Shown here one piece after another: positions 56,898-64,000 of a stretch of 64,000 nucleotides of DNA (within the stretch, counting starts at the first letter, position 1; each line of letters starts with the position of its first letter). The notes beneath the pieces are model-generated. The model ran no database searches. It had not been told where the DNA came from and worked only from the letters and a program-made list of their open reading frames with translations. The DNA is from a virus: IMG/VR virus record IMGVR_UViG_3300043137_000338; one strand, 5' to 3'. A program made the translations under genes and the position numbers.

Positions 56898-57218
56898 GTG
56901 AAGAAAGTCTTTTTGATCGCCGCTGTTGCTGTCGCCTCTGTTGGTATTTTGGCATCGGCACCTGCTTGTGCTCAAAATCATAGGCACCAGCACCATAACG
57001 GAACTCGTGATATTATTATCGGTACCGTTATCGGTGGTGTTGTGACCGGAGTTATTATGAACTCGCAGCGCGGTCAAGTTATCGTACAACCGCAAGTTGT
57101 ATATCAGCCTGAGCCGATGCCTGTTTATCAACCTGCACCAAAACAGTACTGTGAAGTAAAATTCATTCAAGATCAATTTGGTCAGGTTCGCGAATTTACT
57201 GCTTGCTACTATCGCTAA
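56898..57218 (+). CDS. small secreted His-rich protein
   Basis: GTG 56898 after AAAGGA; signal peptide KKVFLIAAVAVASVGILASAPACAQ; HRHQHH. Confidence 0.45.
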   Translation: MKKVFLIAAVAVASVGILASAPACAQNHRHQHHNGTRDIIIGTVIGGVVTGVIMNSQRGQVIVQPQVVYQPEPMPVYQPAPKQYCEVKFIQDQFGQVREFTACYYR

Positions 57219-57219
57219 T

Positions 57220-57657
57220 ATGAAACAGAAATGGATTGATGCATTCATGGATACTGCTGAGCGTTTTGCTCAGCTGAGTTCTGCCACCAGGTTGAAGGTG
57301 GGTGCAGTGGTAGTCCAAGAAAACCGTATAATCTCCATCGGCTATAATGGAATGCCAGCTGGCTGGAGTAATGAGTGTGAAGAAGAAATTGTTGTCGATG
57401 TCGACGACAAGTGGTTGGTAACATTGAAAACAAAAGATGAGGTTATTCATGCAGAAGCTAATGCAATTCTCAAGTTGGCACGCGATGGTGAACGAGGCAC
57501 TGGCGCCAGCATATTCATCACTCATGCTCCTTGCATCAACTGTGCTAAGTTGGTCTACGGCGCTGGAATCAAGAACGTTTACTACCGTAACAGCTACCGT
57601 GACACCGCTGGTGAAGACTTTCTGGTGAAGTGCGAAATAAATGTTGAAAAAACTTGA
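57220..57657 (+). CDS. cd: dCMP deaminase
   Basis: Zinc-binding HAEANAI..HAPCINCAKL; ATG 57220. Confidence 0.85.
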   Translation: MKQKWIDAFMDTAERFAQLSSATRLKVGAVVVQENRIISIGYNGMPAGWSNECEEEIVVDVDDKWLVTLKTKDEVIHAEANAILKLARDGERGTGASIFITHAPCINCAKLVYGAGIKNVYYRNSYRDTAGEDFLVKCEINVEKT

Positions 57658-57919: not shown

Positions 57920-57954
57920 GTTTTACCCCTACAGACTGTAGGGTCTTATGAAGT

Positions 57955-58011
57955 GCTTTACTTTAATTCACTTCTGAAGTAAAATAGGTGCTTAGGTTGA
58001 GTGAAGAGGTT
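57955..58011 (+). repeat. 57-nt promoter repeat unit copy A (GCTTTACTTTAATTCACTTCTGAAGTAAAATAGGTGCTTAGGTTGAGTGAAGAGGTTG)
   Basis: Near-identical units at 58042, 62806 and 62889; each holds a -35/-10 promoter and a conserved leader. Confidence 0.7.
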
Positions 58012-58041
58012 GTTCTGTTCTTCGCTTAGCTTGAAAGAAGT

Positions 58042-58098
58042 GCTTGACTTTAATTCAGGTTTGAAGTAAAATAGGTGCTTACGTTGAATGGCAACGGC
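58042..58098 (+). repeat. 57-nt promoter repeat unit copy B
   Basis: -35 TTGACT 58044-58049, -10 TAAAAT 58067-58072. Confidence 0.7.
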
Positions 58099-58170: not shown

Positions 58171-58243
58171 ACCCTCTTAGCCAAGCTGGTAAGGCATCGG
58201 ATTTTGATTCCGACATGCGGTGGTTCGAATCCATCAGGGGGTG
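58171..58243 (+). tRNA. tRNA-Gln (UUG)
   Basis: Cloverleaf by hand: acceptor ACCCTCT/AGGGGGT, anticodon loop TTTTGAT, T-loop TTCGAAT, CCA encoded. Confidence 0.75.
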
Positions 58244-58337
58244 CCATATTAAAACATATTATCTGAGTACAAGGCTCAGTGCTACGAAGCAAAATGTCTA
58301 GCAAGCCTCAAGAGGAAGCTATAGTGTGTTTTAATAT

Positions 58338-58398
58338 GGGAGTATGGCGCAGCGGACTTTTAATCCGTTGGTCGAGGGTTCGAATCCCTCTGCTCCTA
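58338..58398 (+). ncRNA. 61-nt tRNA-like element lacking a D-arm (anticodon-loop-like CTTTTAA)
   Basis: Acceptor GGGAGTA/TGCTCCT, anticodon-like arm, T-arm GAGGG TTCGAAT CCCTC and ACCA, but only 7 nt where the D-arm should be. Confidence 0.4.
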
Positions 58399-58416
58399 CC
58401 AAACGAGTTCTTAGGT

Positions 58417-58487
58417 GTGACTATGATGTAGCGGTAGCATCAGAGATTGTGATTCTCTTTGTATGGGTTCAACTCCCATTAGTCACC
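58417..58487 (+). tRNA. tRNA-His (GUG)
   Basis: Acceptor GTGACTA/TAGTCAC, anticodon loop TTGTGAT. Confidence 0.65.
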
Positions 58488-58501
58488 CCTAAGAATTTTA
58501 T

Positions 58502-58574
58502 GCAACTTTAGCTGATGTGGTCATAGCGGTGGTTTGAAGAGCCATTGAAGCAGGTTCGATCCCTGCAGGTTGCA
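58502..58574 (+). tRNA. tRNA-Phe (GAA)
   Basis: Acceptor GCAACTT/AGGTTGC, anticodon loop TTGAAGA, T-loop TTCGATC, CCA encoded. Confidence 0.7.
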
Positions 58575-58582
58575 CCAATAAT

Positions 58583-58620
58583 TCCCGGTTAGCTCAAAGG
58601 TAGAGCATACGACTGATTTA
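58583..58620 (+). pseudogene. truncated tRNA 5' half (acceptor + D-arm + 5' anticodon stem, anticodon-loop start CTGAT), interrupted by the endonuclease cassette
   Basis: TCCCGGT TA GCTC AAAGGTA GAGC A TACGA CTGAT.. runs straight into TTTTATAAATAG; no matching 3' half found downstream. Confidence 0.5.
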
Positions 58621-58624
58621 TTTT

Positions 58625-58651
58625 TATAAATAGATATAGGAGGAAACAACT
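58625..58651 (+). promoter_or_regulatory. late promoter TATAAATA + AGGAGGAAAC cassette
   Basis: TTTTTATAAATAGATATAGGAGGAAACAACTATG. Confidence 0.7.
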
Positions 58652-59254
58652 ATGTTTATTTGTAAATACTGTAGTAAAGATTGCAACAAAAGGTCACATA
58701 AAAATCATGAATTAAGGTGTCCTAAAAATGCAAACAGGGAATATAAAAATGGAATGTTAGGTAAGAAGGGTAGTAATCAATACACAAAATCAAAATCATT
58801 GTGTATTGAGCCGCCAGTATATGACAGATCTAACTGGAAAAGAGGTGGGGCAGCAGCTTGGTCTACCGAAGAAAGATCAGAAAATGCTAAAAAGCAAGGG
58901 TTCGGTGGTTATAGAGAAAACGCTGGTAACTCGAAGAAGTTTCGAGTTATTGACTCGTTTGGAAAAGAAACTACACTTCAAAGTTCTTATGAATTTAGGT
59001 GTAGTGAGATTTTAAATGAACTTGGTATAAAATGGATTAGACCTAAAGCGTTGAAATATGATAATAGGAATTACTTTGCAGATTTTTATCTTCCAGATTT
59101 AGATATCTGGCTTGACCCAAAGAATAGCTATAAAGCAAAACATGACGAAGAAAAGATAAGAAAGGTCATTGAGCAAAACTCTGTTAGATTGTTTGTTCTT
59201 CTGGAACACCAGCTATCTAAAGAATATATTGGGAGATTAGCTGAGACGGATTAG
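58652..59254 (+). CDS. putative homing endonuclease (Cys-rich N-terminus, PD-(D/E)XK/Vsr-like C-terminus)
   Basis: CKYCSKDC..H..C zinc motif; ..FADFYLPDLDIWLDPK.. nuclease-like core; uses the shared endonuclease-gene cassette. Confidence 0.45.
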   Translation: MFICKYCSKDCNKRSHKNHELRCPKNANREYKNGMLGKKGSNQYTKSKSLCIEPPVYDRSNWKRGGAAAWSTEERSENAKKQGFGGYRENAGNSKKFRVIDSFGKETTLQSSYEFRCSEILNELGIKWIRPKALKYDNRNYFADFYLPDLDIWLDPKNSYKAKHDEEKIRKVIEQNSVRLFVLLEHQLSKEYIGRLAETD

Positions 59255-59355
59255 CAGTGTCTTGATAAGGCACAGAGGTTGGATCGTTACCAACATCTTC
59301 TACCAGTAGATTAGTAAGACAGAGGATCGTTACCTCTACTGGGAACCAGATTTAT

Positions 59356-59426
59356 GCGGGATTAGTTTAGTGGTAAAACGTCATCCTTCCAAGTTGAAGT
59401 TGCGAGTTCGATTCTCGCATCCCGCT
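59356..59426 (+). tRNA. tRNA-Gly (UCC)
   Basis: Acceptor GCGGGAT/ATCCCGC, anticodon loop CTTCCAA, CCA encoded. Confidence 0.75.
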
Positions 59427-59635
59427 CCAGTTTTAGGATCATTTCAGCAAACTTAAAAACTTTCTTTTATCCAGAAACTAAAAAGTTGATCCTGTTATTT
59501 TCAATTCCGCAGAACCCGAGCATGGTGCATGGGCTTGACTGTTAATCAATGTTTAGCTGGGATCGTTACCCAGATGCGGAGCCAAATATCGCCTTGACTG
59601 ATGGCGTACAATGAGATAAGTAATCAGTCACCTAT

Positions 59636-59707
59636 GCCTCGTTAACTCAGCGGTAGAGTGTCTCCCTTACAAGGAGAAGGTCGGCGGTTCGAACCCGTCA
59701 CGAGGTA
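59636..59707 (+). tRNA. tRNA-Val (UAC)
   Basis: Acceptor GCCTCGT/ACGAGGT, anticodon loop CTTACAA, T-loop TTCGAAC, CCA encoded. Confidence 0.7.
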
Positions 59708-59716
59708 CCAAATTTC

Positions 59717-59790
59717 GCGTCTTTAGCACAACTGGATAGTGCACTGGGCTACGAACTCAGAGGTTGGGGATTCGAATTCCTCAGGACGCA
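59717..59790 (+). tRNA. tRNA-Arg (ACG)
   Basis: Acceptor GCGTCTT/AGGACGC, anticodon loop CTACGAA, CCA encoded. Confidence 0.7.
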
Positions 59791-59800
59791 CCAAACAAAT

Positions 59801-59889
59801 GGAAAGTAATGCAGCGGGGTTGGTCCTGCGACCAGCCTTGAAAACTGGGTTCTCAGAAATGGGATGGGGTTCGACTCCTCTGCTTTCCG
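59801..59889 (+). tRNA. tRNA-Ser (UGA), type II
   Basis: Acceptor GGAAAGT/GCTTTCC, anticodon arm CCAGC CTTGAAA ACTGG, long variable arm, CCA encoded. Confidence 0.7.
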
Positions 59890-59898
59890 CCAAATTAT

Positions 59899-59981
59899 GG
59901 AGTGAATGGAACAATGGTGTTCTAGCTGGCTGTAACCCAGTGGCACTTCGGTGCAGGTAGGTTCGATCCCTACTCACTTCA
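59899..59981 (+). tRNA. tRNA-Tyr (GUA), type II
   Basis: Anticodon arm GCTGG CTGTAAC CCAGT, variable hairpin GCAC TTCG GTGC, CCA encoded. Confidence 0.65.
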
Positions 59982-59990
59982 CCAAGTTTT

Positions 59991-60098
59991 AGGATACTTA
60001 CAGCAAAACTAACTCAAACGTTAGGTAACTGGTTCGACTCCAGTTTCACGCAATAGCGCGAATAGCTCATTCGGTAGAGCAGACGAAGAAAGTATCCT
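59991..60098 (+). ncRNA. circularly permuted tRNA-like element closed by a 9-bp inverted repeat
   Basis: Order is anticodon-like hairpin, T-arm ACTGG TTCGACT CCAGT, 3' acceptor TTCACGC-A, 3-nt spacer, 5' acceptor GCGCGAA, D-arm TA GCTC ATTCGGTA GAGC; flanked by AGGATACTT (59991-59999) and AAGTATCCT (60090-60098). Confidence 0.4.
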
Positions 60099-60108
60099 GT
60101 TATTCAAT

Positions 60109-60193
60109 GGAAGCGTGGCAGAGTGGTCTATTGTATCTGTCTAGAAAGCAGCCGACTCGAAAGGGTCCGTGAGTTCGAATCTCACCGCTTCCT
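60109..60193 (+). tRNA. type II tRNA (Ser-like), anticodon loop CUAGAAA (nominal anticodon AGA; identity uncertain)
   Basis: Acceptor GGAAGCG/CGCTTCC, D-loop GAGTGGTCTAT, variable hairpin GACTC GAAA GGGTC, T-loop TTCGAAT. Confidence 0.5.
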
Positions 60194-60223
60194 CCCTTGA
60201 GTTGATGTCAAGACTCGAACTTT

Positions 60224-60249
60224 TATAAATAGTTACATAGGAGGAAACT
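60224..60249 (+). promoter_or_regulatory. late promoter TATAAATA + AGGAGGAAAC cassette
   Basis: CTTTTATAAATAGTTACATAGGAGGAAACTATG. Confidence 0.7.
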
Positions 60250-60876
60250 ATGTACTATACTGTTTATAAAATAACGAATCGAATCAATGGTAAGATCTAT
60301 ATTGGATCACATAAAACCAAAGATTTGAATGACAATTATATGGGTTCTGGAAAGTATCTTAAATACTCTCAAGAGAAGCATGGTATAGAAAATTTTACCA
60401 AAGAAATTCTTTTTGTTTTTGATACTCCAGAACTTATGTACGCAAAAGAAGCTGAGATTGTTAATGATGAATTCCTTGCTGAAGAAAATACATACAATCT
60501 AAAGCTAGGTGGATATGGTGGGTTTGATTATCTAAATGCTTGGAAGGAAAATCCGACACATTCTGCTGACCATTACTTAAAGATGTCTTTGCGATTGAAA
60601 GAAAAATATCCAAATAGTCCTATGTACGGACGTAAACATTCTGAAGATTCTAAAAGTAAAAACAGTCAATCTAATCTTGGTAATCAAAGGTTTCTTGGGC
60701 GTAAACATTCTGACGAAACTAAACAAAAAATGCGCTATAGCGCATTGGAAAAACATAGTAAAGATAAAAATTCGCAGTTCGGAACTATGTGGATAACCGA
60801 TGGTTTGGAAAACAAAAAGATCAATAAACTACACGAAATTCCTGATGGTTGGCGTCGTGGTAGAGTGATAAATTAA
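60250..60876 (+). CDS. GIY-YIG homing endonuclease (SegB-like, in tRNA cluster)
   Basis: YKITNRINGKIYIGSHK GIY-YIG motif, repeated NUMOD3-like GRKHSEDSK / GRKHSDETK. Confidence 0.8.
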   Translation: MYYTVYKITNRINGKIYIGSHKTKDLNDNYMGSGKYLKYSQEKHGIENFTKEILFVFDTPELMYAKEAEIVNDEFLAEENTYNLKLGGYGGFDYLNAWKENPTHSADHYLKMSLRLKEKYPNSPMYGRKHSEDSKSKNSQSNLGNQRFLGRKHSDETKQKMRYSALEKHSKDKNSQFGTMWITDGLENKKINKLHEIPDGWRRGRVIN

Positions 60877-60902
60877 GTATCTTCGCATACTTCAGATGGG
60901 TC

Positions 60903-60931
60903 TTGACTTTTGATGAATTGTGTAGTAGAAT
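60903..60931 (+). promoter_or_regulatory. sigma70-type promoter TTGACT..N18..TAGAAT
   Basis: Preceded by hairpin AAGTATCTTCGCATACTT 60876-60893. Confidence 0.45.
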
Positions 60932-61038
60932 AGAAACATATGAATATGAATGGGAAGAACAAGAACTTGTTCTTTCGTTGATTAACAAATGGAGAAACGG
61001 TGATCGATTCTCTGCTAATGATTATAGGAGGAAGTCAC

Positions 61039-61618
61039 ATGCCAGCAGTATTTTTAGTATCTGACACACACTTTCGGGCATAGTGGAGTATGCAGATTCA
61101 CTGAGGCAGACGGAGTGACTAAGATTCGACCGTGGACTGATCCAGAAGAAATGGATGAGGAAATGGTCAAGCGATGGAACGAAACCGTCAAGCCAAACGA
61201 CAAGGTTTATCACTTAGGTGACGTTGTCATTAACCGCAAGTCGTTAAGTATTATGAGCCGGTTAAATGGTGACAAGGTTCTGATCAAGGGTAACCATGAC
61301 ATCTTCAAGTTAGAGGAATATACTCAATACTTCAGAGACATTCGTGGTAGTCATGTGATGAACGGTATGATTTTAACTCATATCCCTCTGCATCCAAGAC
61401 AATTATATCGTTTCGGTACTAACATTCATGGTCACTTACATACCAATCGTGTTATGTTTGACGACAAGGAAATGGGTGAGATTATCGATCCGCGTTACTT
61501 CTGTGTTTGCGTTGAACAAACAGATTTTCGCCCTATCTTATTTGAAGACGTAATTAAGCGTATCAAAGAACAGGGTGGTACCGTGGGTTTCAAGAACGGT
61601 AATGGTCCAGTGATGTAA
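61039..61618 (+). pseudogene. calcineurin-like metallophosphoesterase interrupted by a +1 frameshift at UUU CGG G (61072-61078)
   Basis: Frame 1 gives MPAVFLVSDTHF then R A stop; frame +1 continues GHSGV.. and carries GNHD and GHLH motifs; removing C61075 restores DTHFGH. Confidence 0.6.
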
Positions 61619-61730
61619 GAATTGGAAGATGATCTCGGTGCTTCCGTTCTCCCGAGTTAGAATAACTGATATCGTTTCAGTAAGACGGAGCCAAATTTAG
61701 GAGGATTACGGTTTCGTAAACTGTTATTTT

Positions 61731-61767
61731 TATAAATAGATGTATACTAATTATAAGGAGAAACAGT
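61731..61767 (+). promoter_or_regulatory. late promoter TATAAATA + AAGGAGAAAC cassette
   Basis: TTTTTATAAATAGATGTATACTAATTATAAGGAGAAACAGTATG. Confidence 0.65.
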
Positions 61768-62181
61768 ATGAATACTAACGAAAAGGGTGTCCGTGGTTTA
61801 ATTAAAGTAATTGACGATCTACAGAGCAATGGTTATTATGTATTTAATGCATTCGATGATCATTCTCCTGTGGATGTTATAGCGATGGATAAAACTGGAA
61901 AAACATTCAGGATTCAGATAAAGTATCGTCAAGCCACTGTAAAAAAGAACAAAGGCAACACATACAATCTTGGAGCGTTTTCCATAGTTAATTCTAAAAA
62001 AATTGAAATAGATCGTAGTTTAATCGATGGATGGGCAGTATATATGGCAGACGATAATAAAGTTGTGTATATTCCTGTTAAATCTATGGAAGGTAAAAAA
62101 GAAACTACGTTATATGGTAGTGAAGTTTATGGAGAGTTGACAGAGTGGCAATGTGCTGGTTTGCTAAACCAAGACCACTGA
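61768..62181 (+). CDS. putative PD-(D/E)XK-like nuclease (mobile endonuclease candidate); its last 51 nt are the 5' part of tRNA-Ser
   Basis: ..DVIAMDK..FRIQIK.. D..(D/E)xK-like core; the C-terminal residues ..YGELTEWQCAGLLNQDH are encoded by the tRNA-Ser(GCU) acceptor, D and anticodon arms. Confidence 0.45.
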   Translation: MNTNEKGVRGLIKVIDDLQSNGYYVFNAFDDHSPVDVIAMDKTGKTFRIQIKYRQATVKKNKGNTYNLGAFSIVNSKKIEIDRSLIDGWAVYMADDNKVVYIPVKSMEGKKETTLYGSEVYGELTEWQCAGLLNQDH

Positions 62182-62217
62182 GTAATCGGTGCAAGCGTTC
62201 GATCCGCTTACTCTCCG
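62131..62217 (+). tRNA. tRNA-Ser (GCU), type II
   Basis: Acceptor GGAGAGT/ACTCTCC, anticodon arm CTGGT TTGCTAA ACCAA, T-arm AAGCG TTCGATC CGCTT, CCA encoded. Confidence 0.7.
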
Positions 62218-62228
62218 CCAAGAAGTAT

Positions 62229-62317
62229 ACCTCGATAGTTTAACGGTAAAACGGCGGATTTATATCCCGTAAGCAACAGATAATTGGTTCATCCGAGTTC
62301 GATTCTCGGTCGAGGTA
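62229..62317 (+). tRNA. 89-nt tRNA-like gene, anticodon loop TTTATAT (UAU, Ile/AUA) with 22-nt variable region
   Basis: Acceptor ACCTCGA/TCGAGGT, D-arm GTTT AACGGTA AAAC, T-arm CCGAG TTCGATT CTCGG, CCA encoded; extra length unexplained. Confidence 0.45.
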
Positions 62318-62325
62318 CCATATAT

Positions 62326-62399
62326 GCCCTGGTGACGGAATTGGTATACGTGCTTGACTCAAAATCAAGATTTTGTGGGTTCGAGTCCCACCTGGGGCA
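62326..62399 (+). tRNA. tRNA with anticodon CAA (nominally Leu) but a short type I variable loop
   Basis: Acceptor GCCCTGG/CTGGGGC, anticodon arm CTTGA CTCAAAA TCAAG, T-loop TTCGAGT, CCA encoded. Confidence 0.5.
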
Positions 62400-62411
62400 C
62401 CAAAGATGTGC

Positions 62412-62440
62412 TTGACTTTAAATCAAGTCTCATGTATAAT
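62412..62440 (+). promoter_or_regulatory. early promoter TTGACTTTAAATCA..N..TATAAT inside the tRNA cluster
   Basis: -35 62412-62417, -10 62435-62440. Confidence 0.6.
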
Positions 62441-62452
62441 AGCTGTATGAAA

Positions 62453-62533
62453 GCGAGAGTGGTGTAATGGCAGCCACAGGAGACTTAAAATCTCCCGCCG
62501 AAAGGCATGCGGGTTCGAGTCCCGCCTCTCGCA
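62453..62533 (+). tRNA. tRNA-Leu (UAA), type II
   Basis: Acceptor GCGAGAG/CTCTCGC, anticodon arm GGAGA CTTAAAA TCTCC, variable arm CGCCGAAAGGCATG, CCA encoded. Confidence 0.8.
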
Positions 62534-62545
62534 CCAAAGAATTTT

Positions 62546-62618
62546 CTGGCGTTCGTATAATGGATTAATACAGTGCTCTTCTAAAGCACGAATAGGGGTT
62601 CGATTCCCTTACGCCGGA
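62546..62618 (+). tRNA. tRNA-Arg (UCU)
   Basis: Anticodon arm GTGCT CTTCTAA AGCAC, T-loop TTCGATT, CCA encoded. Confidence 0.7.
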
Positions 62619-62628
62619 CCAGATTGAT

Positions 62629-62702
62629 GGGCTTCTAGCTCATGTTGGTTAGAGCAGCGAACTCATAATTCGTTGGTGCCGAGTTCGACTCTCGGGGAGC
62701 CC
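62629..62702 (+). tRNA. tRNA-Met/Ile2 (CAU)
   Basis: Acceptor GGGCTTC/GGAGCCC, D-arm TA GCTC ATGTTGGTTA GAGC, anticodon loop CTCATAA, CCA encoded. Confidence 0.75.
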
Positions 62703-62717
62703 ACCATAGAAATGTAT

Positions 62718-62792
62718 GTACGAGTGGCAGAGTGGTCAAATGCAACGGATTGCAAATCCGTAAAGTCGTGAGTTCGAATCTCACCTTGTACT
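62718..62792 (+). tRNA. tRNA-Cys (GCA)
   Basis: Anticodon arm ACGGA TTGCAAA TCCGT, T-loop TTCGAAT, CCA encoded. Confidence 0.65.
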
Positions 62793-62805
62793 CCAAAAAT
62801 TAGTG

Positions 62806-62862
62806 CTTGACTTTAATTCGCTTCTGTAGTAAAATAGGTGCTTAGGTTGAGTGAAGAAGTTG
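62806..62862 (+). repeat. 57-nt promoter repeat unit copy C
   Basis: GCTTGACTTTAATTCGCTTCTGTAGTAAAATAGGTGCTTAGGTTGAGTGAAGAAGTTG. Confidence 0.7.
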
Positions 62863-62888
62863 ATGTTGTTGGTTAGTTGCTACGAAGT

Positions 62889-62940
62889 GCTTGACTTTAA
62901 TTCGCTTCTGTAGTAAAATAGGTGCTTAGGTTGATTAGGA
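62889..62940 (+). repeat. 57-nt promoter repeat unit copy D (leader runs into the RBS of the next ORF)
   Basis: Identical to copy C through AGGTGCTTAGGTTGA, then TTAGGAGC. Confidence 0.7.
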
Positions 62941-62946
62941 GCTTAT

Positions 62947-63177
62947 ATGGGAATGATGAAAAACCTGGTTATTGACATCCAAGAATCTATTGAGCTTGGC
63001 GATGATTTTGACGAGATCGCTGATCGCTTTAATGTTAGCTTGGCTGATGTTGAAGCAATTGCTGATGCGATGGATTCTAGCTATGATGAATCAATGGACG
63101 GTGATCATGATTCTGCAATGGCTTCTGCTGGTTTTGGAACCGATGAAGATTACGGTTACGCTGGCGAAGATTTCTGA
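62947..63177 (+). CDS. small highly acidic protein
   Basis: 76 aa, D/E-rich; TAGGAG RBS. Confidence 0.45.
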   Translation: MGMMKNLVIDIQESIELGDDFDEIADRFNVSLADVEAIADAMDSSYDESMDGDHDSAMASAGFGTDEDYGYAGEDF

Positions 63178-63264
63178 AGCCCTCTCTGAGTCTTTACGTA
63201 AAGTCGGAAGCCTGAGGCACTAAGAAGGTTTGGATGTTTTTCCTCACACAAAAACATCCGTTAT

Positions 63265-63337
63265 GCTCTGTTCGTCTAACGGTTAGGACGCTGCCCTTTC
63301 AAGGCGGAAACGAGGGGTTCGATTCCCCCACGGAGTA
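63265..63337 (+). tRNA. tRNA-Glu (UUC)
   Basis: D-arm GTCT AACGGTTA GGAC, anticodon arm CTGCC CTTTCAA GGCGG, CCA encoded; preceded by hairpin GGATGTTTTT..AAAACATCC 63231-63259. Confidence 0.65.
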
Positions 63338-63347
63338 CCAGAATTTT

Positions 63348-63419
63348 GGGCTGATAGTGATAATGGGAGCACAGGGGCTTTGCAAGCCTTTAGTCGGGGT
63401 TCGATCCCCCGTCGGTCCA
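63348..63419 (+). tRNA. tRNA-Ala (UGC)
   Basis: Anticodon arm GGGGC TTTGCAA GCCTT, T-loop TTCGATC, CCA encoded. Confidence 0.65.
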
Positions 63420-63427
63420 CCAAATAT

Positions 63428-63499
63428 GCGTTGTAAACTTTGATGATGAAGTCCCGGCTCTTAACCGGCGAGAAGAAAGTTTGACTCTTTCACGACGCA
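63428..63499 (+). tRNA. tRNA-Lys (CUU), atypical T-loop TTTGACT
   Basis: Acceptor GCGTTGT/ACGACGC, anticodon arm CCGG CTCTTAA CCGG, CCA encoded. Confidence 0.5.
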
Positions 63500-63512
63500 C
63501 CAAGTTTTCAAT

Positions 63513-63586
63513 CCGAGTGTAGCGCAGTCTGGTAGCGCATCTGCTTTGGGAGCAGGAGGTCGTAGGTTCGAATCCTACTACTCGGA
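63513..63586 (+). tRNA. tRNA-Pro (UGG)
   Basis: D-arm TA GCGC AGTCTGGTA GCGC, anticodon arm TCTGC TTTGGGA GCAGG, CCA encoded. Confidence 0.75.
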
Positions 63587-63674
63587 CCACAGTTTTTAGG
63601 ATAGTTTCTGCAAATTATACAGACTACTCAAATTGGATTGTCTTAGTCGACAACACTATCCTGTTGTATTTAAT

Positions 63675-63756
63675 GGAGATGAAGCATCAATGGTGATGCA
63701 GTGGACTGTAAATCCGCCGCCCTCGGGCACGACTGGTTCGATCCCAGTAATCTCCA
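63675..63756 (+). tRNA. second tRNA-Tyr-like (GUA), type II
   Basis: Acceptor GGAGATG/AATCTCC (one mismatch), anticodon arm GTGGA CTGTAAA TCCGC, variable hairpin GCCC TC GGGC, CCA encoded. Confidence 0.55.
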
Positions 63757-63766
63757 CCAAGTTTAT

Positions 63767-63838
63767 GGCTCGTTCGTATAAAGGTTATTACTTCGGATTG
63801 TCTATCCGATTATGGGAGTTCGATTCTCCCACGAGTCG
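63767..63838 (+). tRNA. tRNA-Asp (GUC)
   Basis: Anticodon arm TCGGA TTGTCTA TCCGA, T-loop TTCGATT, CCA encoded. Confidence 0.7.
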
Positions 63839-64000
63839 CCAAGTTTTGTAAGTGTAGATGTTGAGAAAGCATAGCCTCGAAAACTATGTGAGTTTACGGT
63901 TCGAGTCCGACAACACGGTAACAAACATGTATCAACTATTACTACGTACCTCTAACCCTAACGTATACAGGGCGAAATGGTAGCGAATGAGAGAGGCGCT

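Follow-up and report, generated by a model that had tools for sequence, protein, structure and literature searches.

A free-standing endonuclease cassette in a T4-like phage tRNA cluster probably destroys a tRNA-Ile(GAT) gene and carries its replacement

Why does a tRNA gene in a phage tRNA cluster stop at its anticodon and run straight into an endonuclease gene, and what supplies the tRNA instead? The question is raised by IMG/VR virus record IMGVR_UViG_3300043137_000338, of which a stretch of 64,000 nucleotides (the window) was analyzed. It holds the tRNA cluster of an uncultured T4-like phage, in which ARAGORN and Rfam together identify 20 tRNA genes (58171-63841). Our analysis indicates that a free-standing, intron-less homing-endonuclease cassette of ~690 bp has probably destroyed its target, a resident tRNA-Ile(GAT) gene, and carries a replacement for it.

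The initial annotation had described a tRNA 5' half with acceptor strand, D arm and anticodon stem that runs into a late-promoter cassette and a 200-aa open reading frame (ORF), and both the sequence and the ORF list bear this out. The orphan 5' half begins 5 nt past the end of tRNA-Phe(GAA) and reads TCCCGGT TA GCTC AAAGGTA GAGC A TACGA CT GAT, that is, the acceptor 5' strand, the D arm, the 5' strand of the anticodon stem and the loop up to the anticodon GAT (position 36). Orphans were searched with nhmmer using a 5'-half and a 3'-half profile, both derived from 28 intact tRNA-Ile(GAT) genes that related phages carry; these replaced a simple D-arm regular expression, which was noisy at finding orphans. 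The orphan 5' half matches its profile with E=7e-10 over profile positions 1-35, and BLAST homology to the tRNA-Phe and tRNA-Ile genes of many related loci ends exactly at 58617. With positions 1-36 only it forms no complete cloverleaf, and it was called neither by ARAGORN (introns of up to 900 nt allowed) nor by Rfam.

The other half of the resident gene is also present. Downstream lies a remnant, TAGTA AGAC AGAGG ATCGTTA CCTCT ACTGGGA A CCA, which comprises the 3' strand of the anticodon stem and everything beyond it: variable loop, T arm, acceptor 3' strand, A and CCA. It matches the 3'-half profile with E=1e-8 from 59317 onward. Its acceptor strand ACTGGGA pairs with the upstream TCCCGGT at seven of seven positions (one G-T) and is unpaired with GGGAGAT, the corresponding strand of the tRNA gene that lies in between. 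The initial annotation had found no complementary 3' half by eye, having sought ACCGGGA and TCGTA; the actual strings are ACTGGGA and TAGTA, and its statement is not confirmed.

Between the two orphan halves stands a complete tRNA-Ile(GAT), on which the initial annotation was silent and which both ARAGORN and Rfam call as a tRNA (the Rfam score given in Table 1 comes from the region searched alone). Its allele differs from the resident one. The first 24 nt of this cassette tRNA (GGGAGATTAGCTGAGACGGATTAG) are at the same time the last seven codons and the stop codon of the ORF (...G R L A E T D, stop), and the variable C-terminal tails across the nuclease family (..RLAE[T/M]D, ..LCS) are translated tRNA 5' ends. 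In the common cloverleaf of 15 distinct cassette tRNAs, 19 of 21 pairs covary and almost none is broken, which argues that the cassette tRNAs are under selection as tRNAs and that the inner tRNA is, to judge from these sequences, a working gene. The order in the window is thus nested: 5' orphan, promoter, ORF, whole tRNA-Ile and 3' orphan (Table 1). The GAT of the right junction may be a 3-nt repeat of the anticodon.

Table 1. Features of the interrupted tRNA-Ile(GAT) locus and its flanking tRNA genes, in window positions.
Feature	Position	Strand	Basis
tRNA-Phe(GAA), upstream neighbor	58502-58577	+	ARAGORN; Rfam 57 bits
Orphan 5' half of resident tRNA-Ile(GAT), positions 1-36	58583-58617	+	sequence; nhmmer; BLAST boundary
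Predicted 17-bp hairpin pairing the TATAAATA region with the start-codon region	58623-58666	+	minimum free energy folding
T4-type late promoter motif TATAAATA	58625-58632	+	read directly; same place in most homologous cassettes
Shine-Dalgarno AGGAGG, 8 nt before ATG	58638-58643	+	read directly
ORF of 200-aa endonuclease: N-terminal CCHC zinc finger, C-terminal PD-(D/E)XK-like nuclease domain	58652-59254	+	ORF list; homologues; AlphaFold2; Foldseek
Complete cassette tRNA-Ile(GAT), CCA encoded	59231-59305	+	ARAGORN; Rfam tRNA (RF00005) 41.5 bits vs threshold 29
Right junction GTAGAT, 6 nt	59306-59311	+	read directly; vs empty-site allele ...GAT AA TCGTA AGAC...
Orphan 3' remnant of resident tRNA-Ile(GAT), positions 39-76 with C40->A	59312-59348	+	nhmmer 3'-half profile; acceptor pairing
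tRNA-Gly(TCC), downstream neighbor	59356-59429	+	ARAGORN; Rfam 69.9 bits

Related loci without the ORF show what the site looks like when uninterrupted. Upstream of the tRNA cluster the window carries a gene resembling that of deoxycytidine monophosphate (dCMP) deaminase (57178-57657), and 80 viral-contig loci sharing this gene (protein 66-97% identical) served as a comparison set; none of the 80 encodes the nuclease in a tblastn search. Of these 80 loci, 47 have one intact tRNA-Ile(GAT) each, which follows tRNA-Phe at a distance of 1-10 nt in 34 cases. No orphans were seen in the slot after tRNA-Phe among related loci lacking the ORF. A scan of metagenome contigs further yielded an empty-site allele in three loci (L186, L188 and L189), ACCCGGTTAGCTCAAAGGTAGAGCATACGACTGAT AA TCGTA AGAC CAAGG ATCGTTA CCTTG ACTGGGT ACCA, which is identical to the orphan 5' half at positions 2-36 and which, read across the site of interruption, runs ACCCGGTTAGCTCAAAGGTAGAGCATACGACTGAT / AA / TCGTAAGAC... 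(slashes at the junction). In L186 this is an intact tRNA-Ile(GAT) of the resident type (ACCCGGTTAGCTCAAAGGTAGAGCATACGACTGATAATCGTAAGACC...). Measured against the empty-site allele, A37 and A38 are missing from the window, which also shows C40->A. The orphan had no match when viral contigs were scanned for its exact pattern. Among 50,697 deposited phage genomes the cluster has no close relative, and megablast returned short tRNA matches only.

A further locus from the metagenome-contig scan, L187, is 98.5% identical to the window over 58573-59904 (1332 nt; orphan, cassette and downstream tRNAs), and its upstream tRNA-Phe is a different, unalignable allele (L187 1-106 vs window 58480-58572). 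The same cassette therefore sits in two backgrounds, which speaks for its mobility, and the recombination boundary of the mosaic is at the 5' end of the orphan. Among related genomes the locus is polymorphic for presence and absence of the ORF, with an intact target where the ORF is absent. The disruption of a target site by insertion of an endonuclease gene, which the initial annotation had put forward together with a comparison to the tRNA clusters of relatives lacking the ORF, is supported on both counts: the same slot holds an intact tRNA-Ile(GAT) in such relatives, and the empty-site allele agrees with the orphan.

For the protein encoded by the interrupting ORF, public data contain 300 homologues (E<=1e-5), nearly all of which are unnamed metagenomic proteins. 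In all of 37 aligned members two sets of residues are invariant, namely C4, C7, H19 and C23, which form a CCHC zinc finger, and E114, D144 and D155-P-K157, which form an E ... D ... (D/E)-x-K motif. The AlphaFold2 model has a mean predicted local distance difference test (pLDDT) value of 84, exceeding 90 over about residues 100-190, and its best Foldseek matches among solved structures are Bax1, the restriction-like endonuclease of the R2 retrotransposon, PvuRts1I, T7 endonuclease I and Vsr, all five of them PD-(D/E)XK enzymes acting on DNA. In PHROGs the protein matches phrog_9019, 'Holliday junction resolvase', at 2e-6. Distant homologues match the Pfam models Phage_endo_I, NUMOD3 and C2H2 zinc finger, all below threshold; searches of NCBIfam and of PDB sequences gave no significant family for the window protein, and neither a GIY-YIG match (E<=0.1) nor an HNH signal was obtained. 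Its modeled fold and its catalytic motif place the protein in the PD-(D/E)XK nuclease superfamily, whose hallmarks are an alpha-beta-beta-beta-alpha-beta core and this motif. It is the only ORF of the insert, which holds no integrase gene.

The leader of the ORF carries putative signals for late expression. The orphan 5' half is separated from TATAAATA by TTA TTTT, and the role of TATAAATA as a late promoter is taken from what is known of T4. In the predicted hairpin the Shine-Dalgarno sequence lies in the loop and the ATG in the stem; its minimum free energy is -16 kcal/mol (z=-5.4), and none of 200 shuffled sequences folds as well. An equivalent hairpin is predicted in many homologous leaders, e.g. 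those of L082, L083, L109 and L110. Two sigma-70-like promoters (57930-58075, TTTACT/TTGACT-17-TAAAAT) are found upstream of the tRNA cluster, ~87 nt apart, and judged by eye the pair forms an apparent direct repeat of ~87 nt. Since these promoters precede the cluster, read-through transcripts would carry the closed hairpin. Transcripts from the late promoter would lack its 5' arm, leading to late-only translation. Late-only translational control by a hairpin has been described for I-TevI, I-TevII, I-TevIII and MobE of T4 (PMC2330249), and the late promoter with a hairpin sequestering the start codon would presumably provide the control typical of T4 homing endonucleases.

The arrangement is not peculiar to the window but is shared by dozens of phages. 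Genomic contexts were compared for three homologues and then for 14 and 80 loci from viral contigs, and the counts below refer to the 36 non-redundant loci that encode a nuclease with 49% or more identity to that of the window. In 31 of the 36 the ORF ends 10-53 nt inside a complete tRNA-Ile(GAT), and in one more it ends inside a variant with the anticodon ATC. An upstream orphan 5' half is detected in 22 loci (nhmmer E<=0.01) and was recognized by eye in ~10 more; the orphans typically end in ...[C/T]TGAT and then CT, after which TATAAATA and the Shine-Dalgarno sequence follow. As to the variant, the inner tRNA of the L096-L100 lineage (L096 1859-1932) has the anticodon loop TTATCAA (ATC) vs TTGATAA (GAT) elsewhere; its body is otherwise tRNA-Ile-like, and the orphan upstream of it ends in TTGGG.

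Both orphans are kept in five loci, namely the window, L082, L083, L093 and L147. Their acceptor strands (TCCCGGT/ACTGGGA, ACCCGGT/ACTGGGT, ACCCGCA/TGTGGGT, TGGCGCA/TGTGCCA and ACTTGCT/AGCAAGT) pair at seven of seven positions in each locus, all alleles are different and none fits the cassette tRNA. Dead halves cannot co-evolve, so each orphan pair descends from a different gene that was once intact, and the cassette has therefore entered different resident alleles. When the halves of L082 and of L083 are joined, two of the five anticodon-stem pairs are left. The D arm GCTCA..GGTAGAGC is found in 13 of 17 orphans vs 1 of 30 cassette tRNAs (Fisher p=2e-7, computed on sequences that are related and not phylogenetically independent). 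The orphan 5' halves of L125 and L138 have the D arm GTTAAAAAGTATAAC, close to the cassette-typical GTTAAATGGTATAAC; here an earlier rescue allele may itself have been invaded.

Distant homologues (31-35% identical) reproduce the design at other tRNA genes; counted together, it spans many phages and three tRNA species. In Tequatrovirus vB_Eco_F25 the homologue (31% identical, annotated as 'endonuclease I') extends 38 nt into tRNA-Arg(TCT), with its stop codon TAA within the anticodon loop. The upstream orphan there (..GGTAGAGCAGTCAACTTCT) ends right after the anticodon TCT and resembles the RB10-type Tequatrovirus allele of tRNA-Arg (CGAGGCATAGCTC...), not the T4-type tRNA-Arg downstream. Only 5 of the 443 T4-like phages that share the F25 flanks have the ORF; others carry segB or nothing at this place. 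Kuttervirus PhaxI probably repeats the design at tRNA-Met: its ORF shares 10 nt with this gene, and an orphan piece, GGCCCCGTAGCTCAGTGGTTAGAGCAGAC, lies upstream. In Stenotrophomonas phage Bhz51 an unannotated ORF reaches 33 nt into tRNA-His.

We thus propose the following scenario. The cassette, made up of a late promoter, a regulatory hairpin, a Shine-Dalgarno sequence, the zinc-finger/PD-(D/E)XK ORF and a tRNA-Ile(GAT) of another allele, interrupts the resident tRNA-Ile(GAT) in its anticodon loop, with T36 on one side and position 39 on the other. The resident gene is dead, and the tRNA function probably comes from the cassette's own copy. Late in infection the nuclease would cut the intact tRNA-Ile(GAT) of co-infecting cassette-free phages near the anticodon loop, and the break would be repaired on the cassette-bearing genome, with the orphan halves and the flanking tRNA genes as homology arms. 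The recipient would thereby lose its tRNA-Ile gene and gain the nuclease gene with the linked replacement tRNA. Bases near the junction would be co-converted and distal bases, i.e. the acceptor ends, retained, and the matched acceptor strands and mismatched anticodon stems of the orphan pairs fit such co-conversion. DNA cleavage, its position, the resistance of the cassette's own tRNA gene and homing itself are steps that we infer from sequence comparison.

Several observations weigh against this scenario. The cassette tRNA-Ile(GAT), which would have to escape cutting, has the same anticodon loop as the proposed target, the D arm being the only systematic difference seen, and some orphans carry a D arm of the cassette type. 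The Foldseek matches reach probabilities of up to 1.0 but have weak E-values (4e-3 to 0.1), and the window protein reaches the threshold of no Pfam family. The target could lie elsewhere, as free-standing homing endonucleases often cut away from their own gene. Finally, most family members lack the 3' orphan, and for this reason the ancestral event may have been a duplication of a 5' half and not the insertion of a whole tRNA.

That last point leads to the rival that survives best, to which we give a small but real chance. Here the mobile unit would consist of the promoter, the ORF and recoded positions 1-36, fusing to the resident 3' half, and the 3' orphan of the window would be secondary. 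Most family members, with nothing but a 5' orphan, look as this predicts, and so does F25, where the ORF covers positions 1-38 of tRNA-Arg, including the TAA in the anticodon loop, and where homology to other T4-like tRNA-Arg genes begins only at about position 21-31. In the five loci with both orphans, however, the inner tRNA comes with a matching 3' half of its own, apart from the surviving resident one, and across loci the 3' halves of cassette tRNAs travel with the nuclease type. Tandem 3' halves are moreover direct repeats and easily deleted, which can explain their absence elsewhere. A duplicated 5' half can hence account for F25 and for the many loci in which the 3' orphan is missing, but not for the window.

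It is improbable that the endonuclease is a passenger, sitting in a gap left when ordinary recombination or deletion among tandem tRNA genes produced the orphans. The cluster is indeed a mosaic that contains other damaged tRNAs, e.g. a tRNA-Lys with a deleted D arm, and the T-arm and acceptor repeats of tRNA genes favor illegitimate recombination. However, 5' orphan, ORF, whole tRNA and 3' orphan stand in nested order, the left junction comes at one and the same nucleotide, behind position 36, in dozens of loci whose resident alleles differ and again in the tRNA-Arg(TCT) case, and ORF-less related loci show no orphans in the slot after tRNA-Phe. As for that tRNA-Lys(UUU) (58338-58401), 11 nt of its D arm are gone; Rfam detects it with a gap at 53.7 bits and ARAGORN does not call it. 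The relatives L008, L037 and L040 have a tRNA-Lys with the full D arm GCGCAGCGGTAGCGC, and the loss looks like a deletion between GCGCAGCGG repeats.

A tRNA interrupted in its anticodon loop brings to mind a self-splicing group I intron, with the halves as exons and the ~690-nt insert as an intron that harbors the endonuclease ORF. Some bacterial tRNA group I introns occupy a similar position immediately behind the anticodon; U36, which precedes the insert, would provide the U required at a group I 5' splice site; the G at 59309 could be the terminal guanosine; and the acceptor strands of the halves are complementary. Nevertheless this explanation is largely refuted, and we regard it as very unlikely. 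Rfam covariance models, by which a conserved ribozyme core (P3-P9) would be recognized, gave no intron family, neither in 58480-59640 (E<=10) nor in seven related loci (E<=0.05). The ORF, which has a promoter and a Shine-Dalgarno sequence of its own, lies in neither a self-splicing intron nor an intein. Only 34 nt separate the splice point from the ATG, and these are the T4 late promoter and the Shine-Dalgarno sequence; only 57 nt follow the stop codon, 51 of them in a complete tRNA. For the same reasons the relic of an intron-borne insertion, which the initial annotation had offered as its second possibility, is unsupported. It had also held that a matching 3' half joinable through a group I intron fold would point to an intron-containing tRNA: the half does exist, and the joining fails. 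The joined halves lack A37 and A38 or have a G-A mismatch in the anticodon stem, and therefore no proper stem; in L082 and L083 the stem is worse still, as described above. ARAGORN left the halves unjoined even when introns of up to 900 nt were permitted; artificial joins yielded a tRNA call at a lowered ARAGORN threshold for almost any junction, so that this test is too permissive. Most family members have no 3' half at all, and with a complete tRNA-Ile(GAT) inside the insert splicing would be needless. Protein-dependent splicing or a split tRNA, in which the nuclease or host enzymes would excise the insert as RNA and a phage RNA ligase would join the halves, or these would assemble in trans, is the least credible explanation: the restriction-endonuclease-like fold class includes tRNA-splicing endonucleases, many T4-like phages encode RNA repair enzymes, and the orphan acceptor strands are still perfectly complementary in five loci, but the conserved residues are the E/D/D-x-K set of DNA nucleases, the fold matches are DNA enzymes, the anticodon stem is beyond rebuilding in L082 and L083, most loci have no 3' orphan, and in every case there is a replacement tRNA of identical anticodon.

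Mobile endonuclease genes usually spare their host by sitting between genes or within a self-splicing intron or intein, and the probable destruction and replacement of tRNA-Ile(GAT) should be seen against such systems. Close to it in setting is SegB of phage T4, a free-standing GIY-YIG homing endonuclease likewise encoded in a T4-like tRNA cluster, which targets tRNA-gene DNA and spreads with neighboring tRNA genes by intron-less homing (PMC2330249; PMC13096335). SegB recognizes a T-loop motif of many tRNAs without isotype preference (PMC13096335), whereas in the family described here each clade keeps to a single tRNA species, and the site is the anticodon loop. The sections of PMC2330249 and PMC13096335 consulted report neither a split tRNA nor an ORF-tRNA overlap for SegB. 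In contrast to SegB, the window protein is PD-(D/E)XK-like and has no GIY-YIG match. Genes split by the insertion of a free-standing endonuclease gene, or 'genes in pieces', reportedly occur as nrdA/mobE in phage Aeh1. 'Fractured genes' with split inteins have also been described (PMC2677866). In both of these, as here, an intron-less endonuclease gene splits a host gene in two; the pieces of the split protein genes, however, stay functional, as subunits or through split-intein ligation, whereas here the pieces are dead and a whole replacement gene is present. Group I introns with homing endonucleases in the anticodon loops of bacterial tRNAs are reviewed in PMC3984707 and share with the cassette a mobile endonuclease gene in a tRNA anticodon loop. 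Their damage is undone by RNA self-splicing, whereas the cassette has no ribozyme and makes the damage good at the DNA level with a second gene copy. One such enzyme, I-Ssp6803I of a tRNA-fMet intron, is a PD-(D/E)XK enzyme. Elements with an integrase and att sites insert in tRNA genes, supply sequence that restores the tRNA and leave a partial tRNA repeat at their far end. Their enzyme is a tyrosine or serine integrase, and the portion duplicated is the 3' end of that same tRNA; the cassette, in contrast, has no integrase, the 5' half is always kept and the supplied tRNA is a different allele. In the literature covered, to which subscription journals contributed little, we found no description of an intron-less nuclease gene that interrupts a tRNA gene and overlaps a replacement with the same anticodon.

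Synthetic 'home-and-rescue' or 'cleave-and-rescue' drives, engineered with Cas9 in animals, destroy the wild-type copy of a gene and carry a linked resistant rescue. The likeness is that a nuclease destroys a needed gene and a linked copy rescues it; here the system would be natural and protein-guided, with a putatively resistant rescue. We therefore raise, tentatively and with more doubt than confidence, the idea that the cassettes are a natural 'cleave-and-rescue' drive on tRNA genes, in which the nuclease and a cleavage-resistant rescue tRNA are joined by their overlap. Processing of the rescue tRNA by RNase P would cut the nuclease mRNA before its stop codon and so limit nuclease expression, and repeated invasions, including those of earlier rescue alleles, would turn over the tRNA alleles of phage tRNA clusters.

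The cluster holds further nuclease genes and atypical tRNAs. Altogether it contains three nuclease ORFs of different families. One, at 60250-60876, encodes a Seg-like homing endonuclease with GIY-YIG and NUMOD3 and lies between tRNA-Ser(AGA) and a metallophosphatase gene. Another, at 61768-62181 (Pfam PDDEXK_5) and unrelated to the 200-aa ORF, has its last 51 nt inside tRNA-Ser(GCT) (62131-62220), an overlap also present in L083 (1632-2083); its leader (ACTGTTATTTTTATAAATAGATGTATA) differs little from the one in front of the 200-aa ORF, and no orphan half of tRNA-Ser was recognized upstream in a search by eye only. A cryptic tRNA-Asn(GTT) at 59506-59584 comes up in ARAGORN only once the threshold is lowered; ARAGORN at default settings and Rfam at its gathering threshold both miss it. 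An 85-nt stretch 92% identical to it occurs, unannotated, in Acinetobacter Lazarusvirus phages such as KARL-1, with compensatory changes in the acceptor and anticodon stems. The T arm GGATCGTTACC with the T-loop ATCGTTA (A54/T58, not T54/A58) occurs at 59281-59291, 59324-59334 and 59560-59570, that is, in both tRNA-Ile copies and in the tRNA-Asn of the window, and also at 29 sites among related loci. What SegB-type endonucleases recognize in DNA is the canonical T-loop motif (PMC2330249), and the variant could be a candidate for escape from such recognition. An intergenic repeat motif, AGTTTTAGGAT..CAGCAAA, follows several tRNA genes (window 59430-59460 and 59985-60010; L055 9378; L086 3496). 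At 60020-60090 a T-arm/acceptor-like piece, GGTTCGACTCCAGTTTCACGCA, and then a piece like a 5' half, GCGCGAATAGCTCATTCGGTAGAGCAGACGA, can be seen by eye; no tool calls a complete tRNA there.

For annotation, our results imply that standard tools miss or mis-call orphan halves, ORF-tRNA overlaps and several atypical tRNAs. The proposed scenario is directly testable, because homologues exist in cultured coliphages and Salmonella phages (vB_Eco_F25, PhaxI). The cassette looks like a third way for a mobile endonuclease gene to spare its host, namely to break a gene and bring a spare, and would be a natural counterpart of the engineered rescue-type gene drives. It would also explain why phage tRNA clusters contain orphan tRNA halves and tRNA alleles that are duplicated or unusual. 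If the drive interpretation were true, phage tRNAs would owe some of their diversity and oddity, as a by-product, to endonuclease conflict and not to translation needs.

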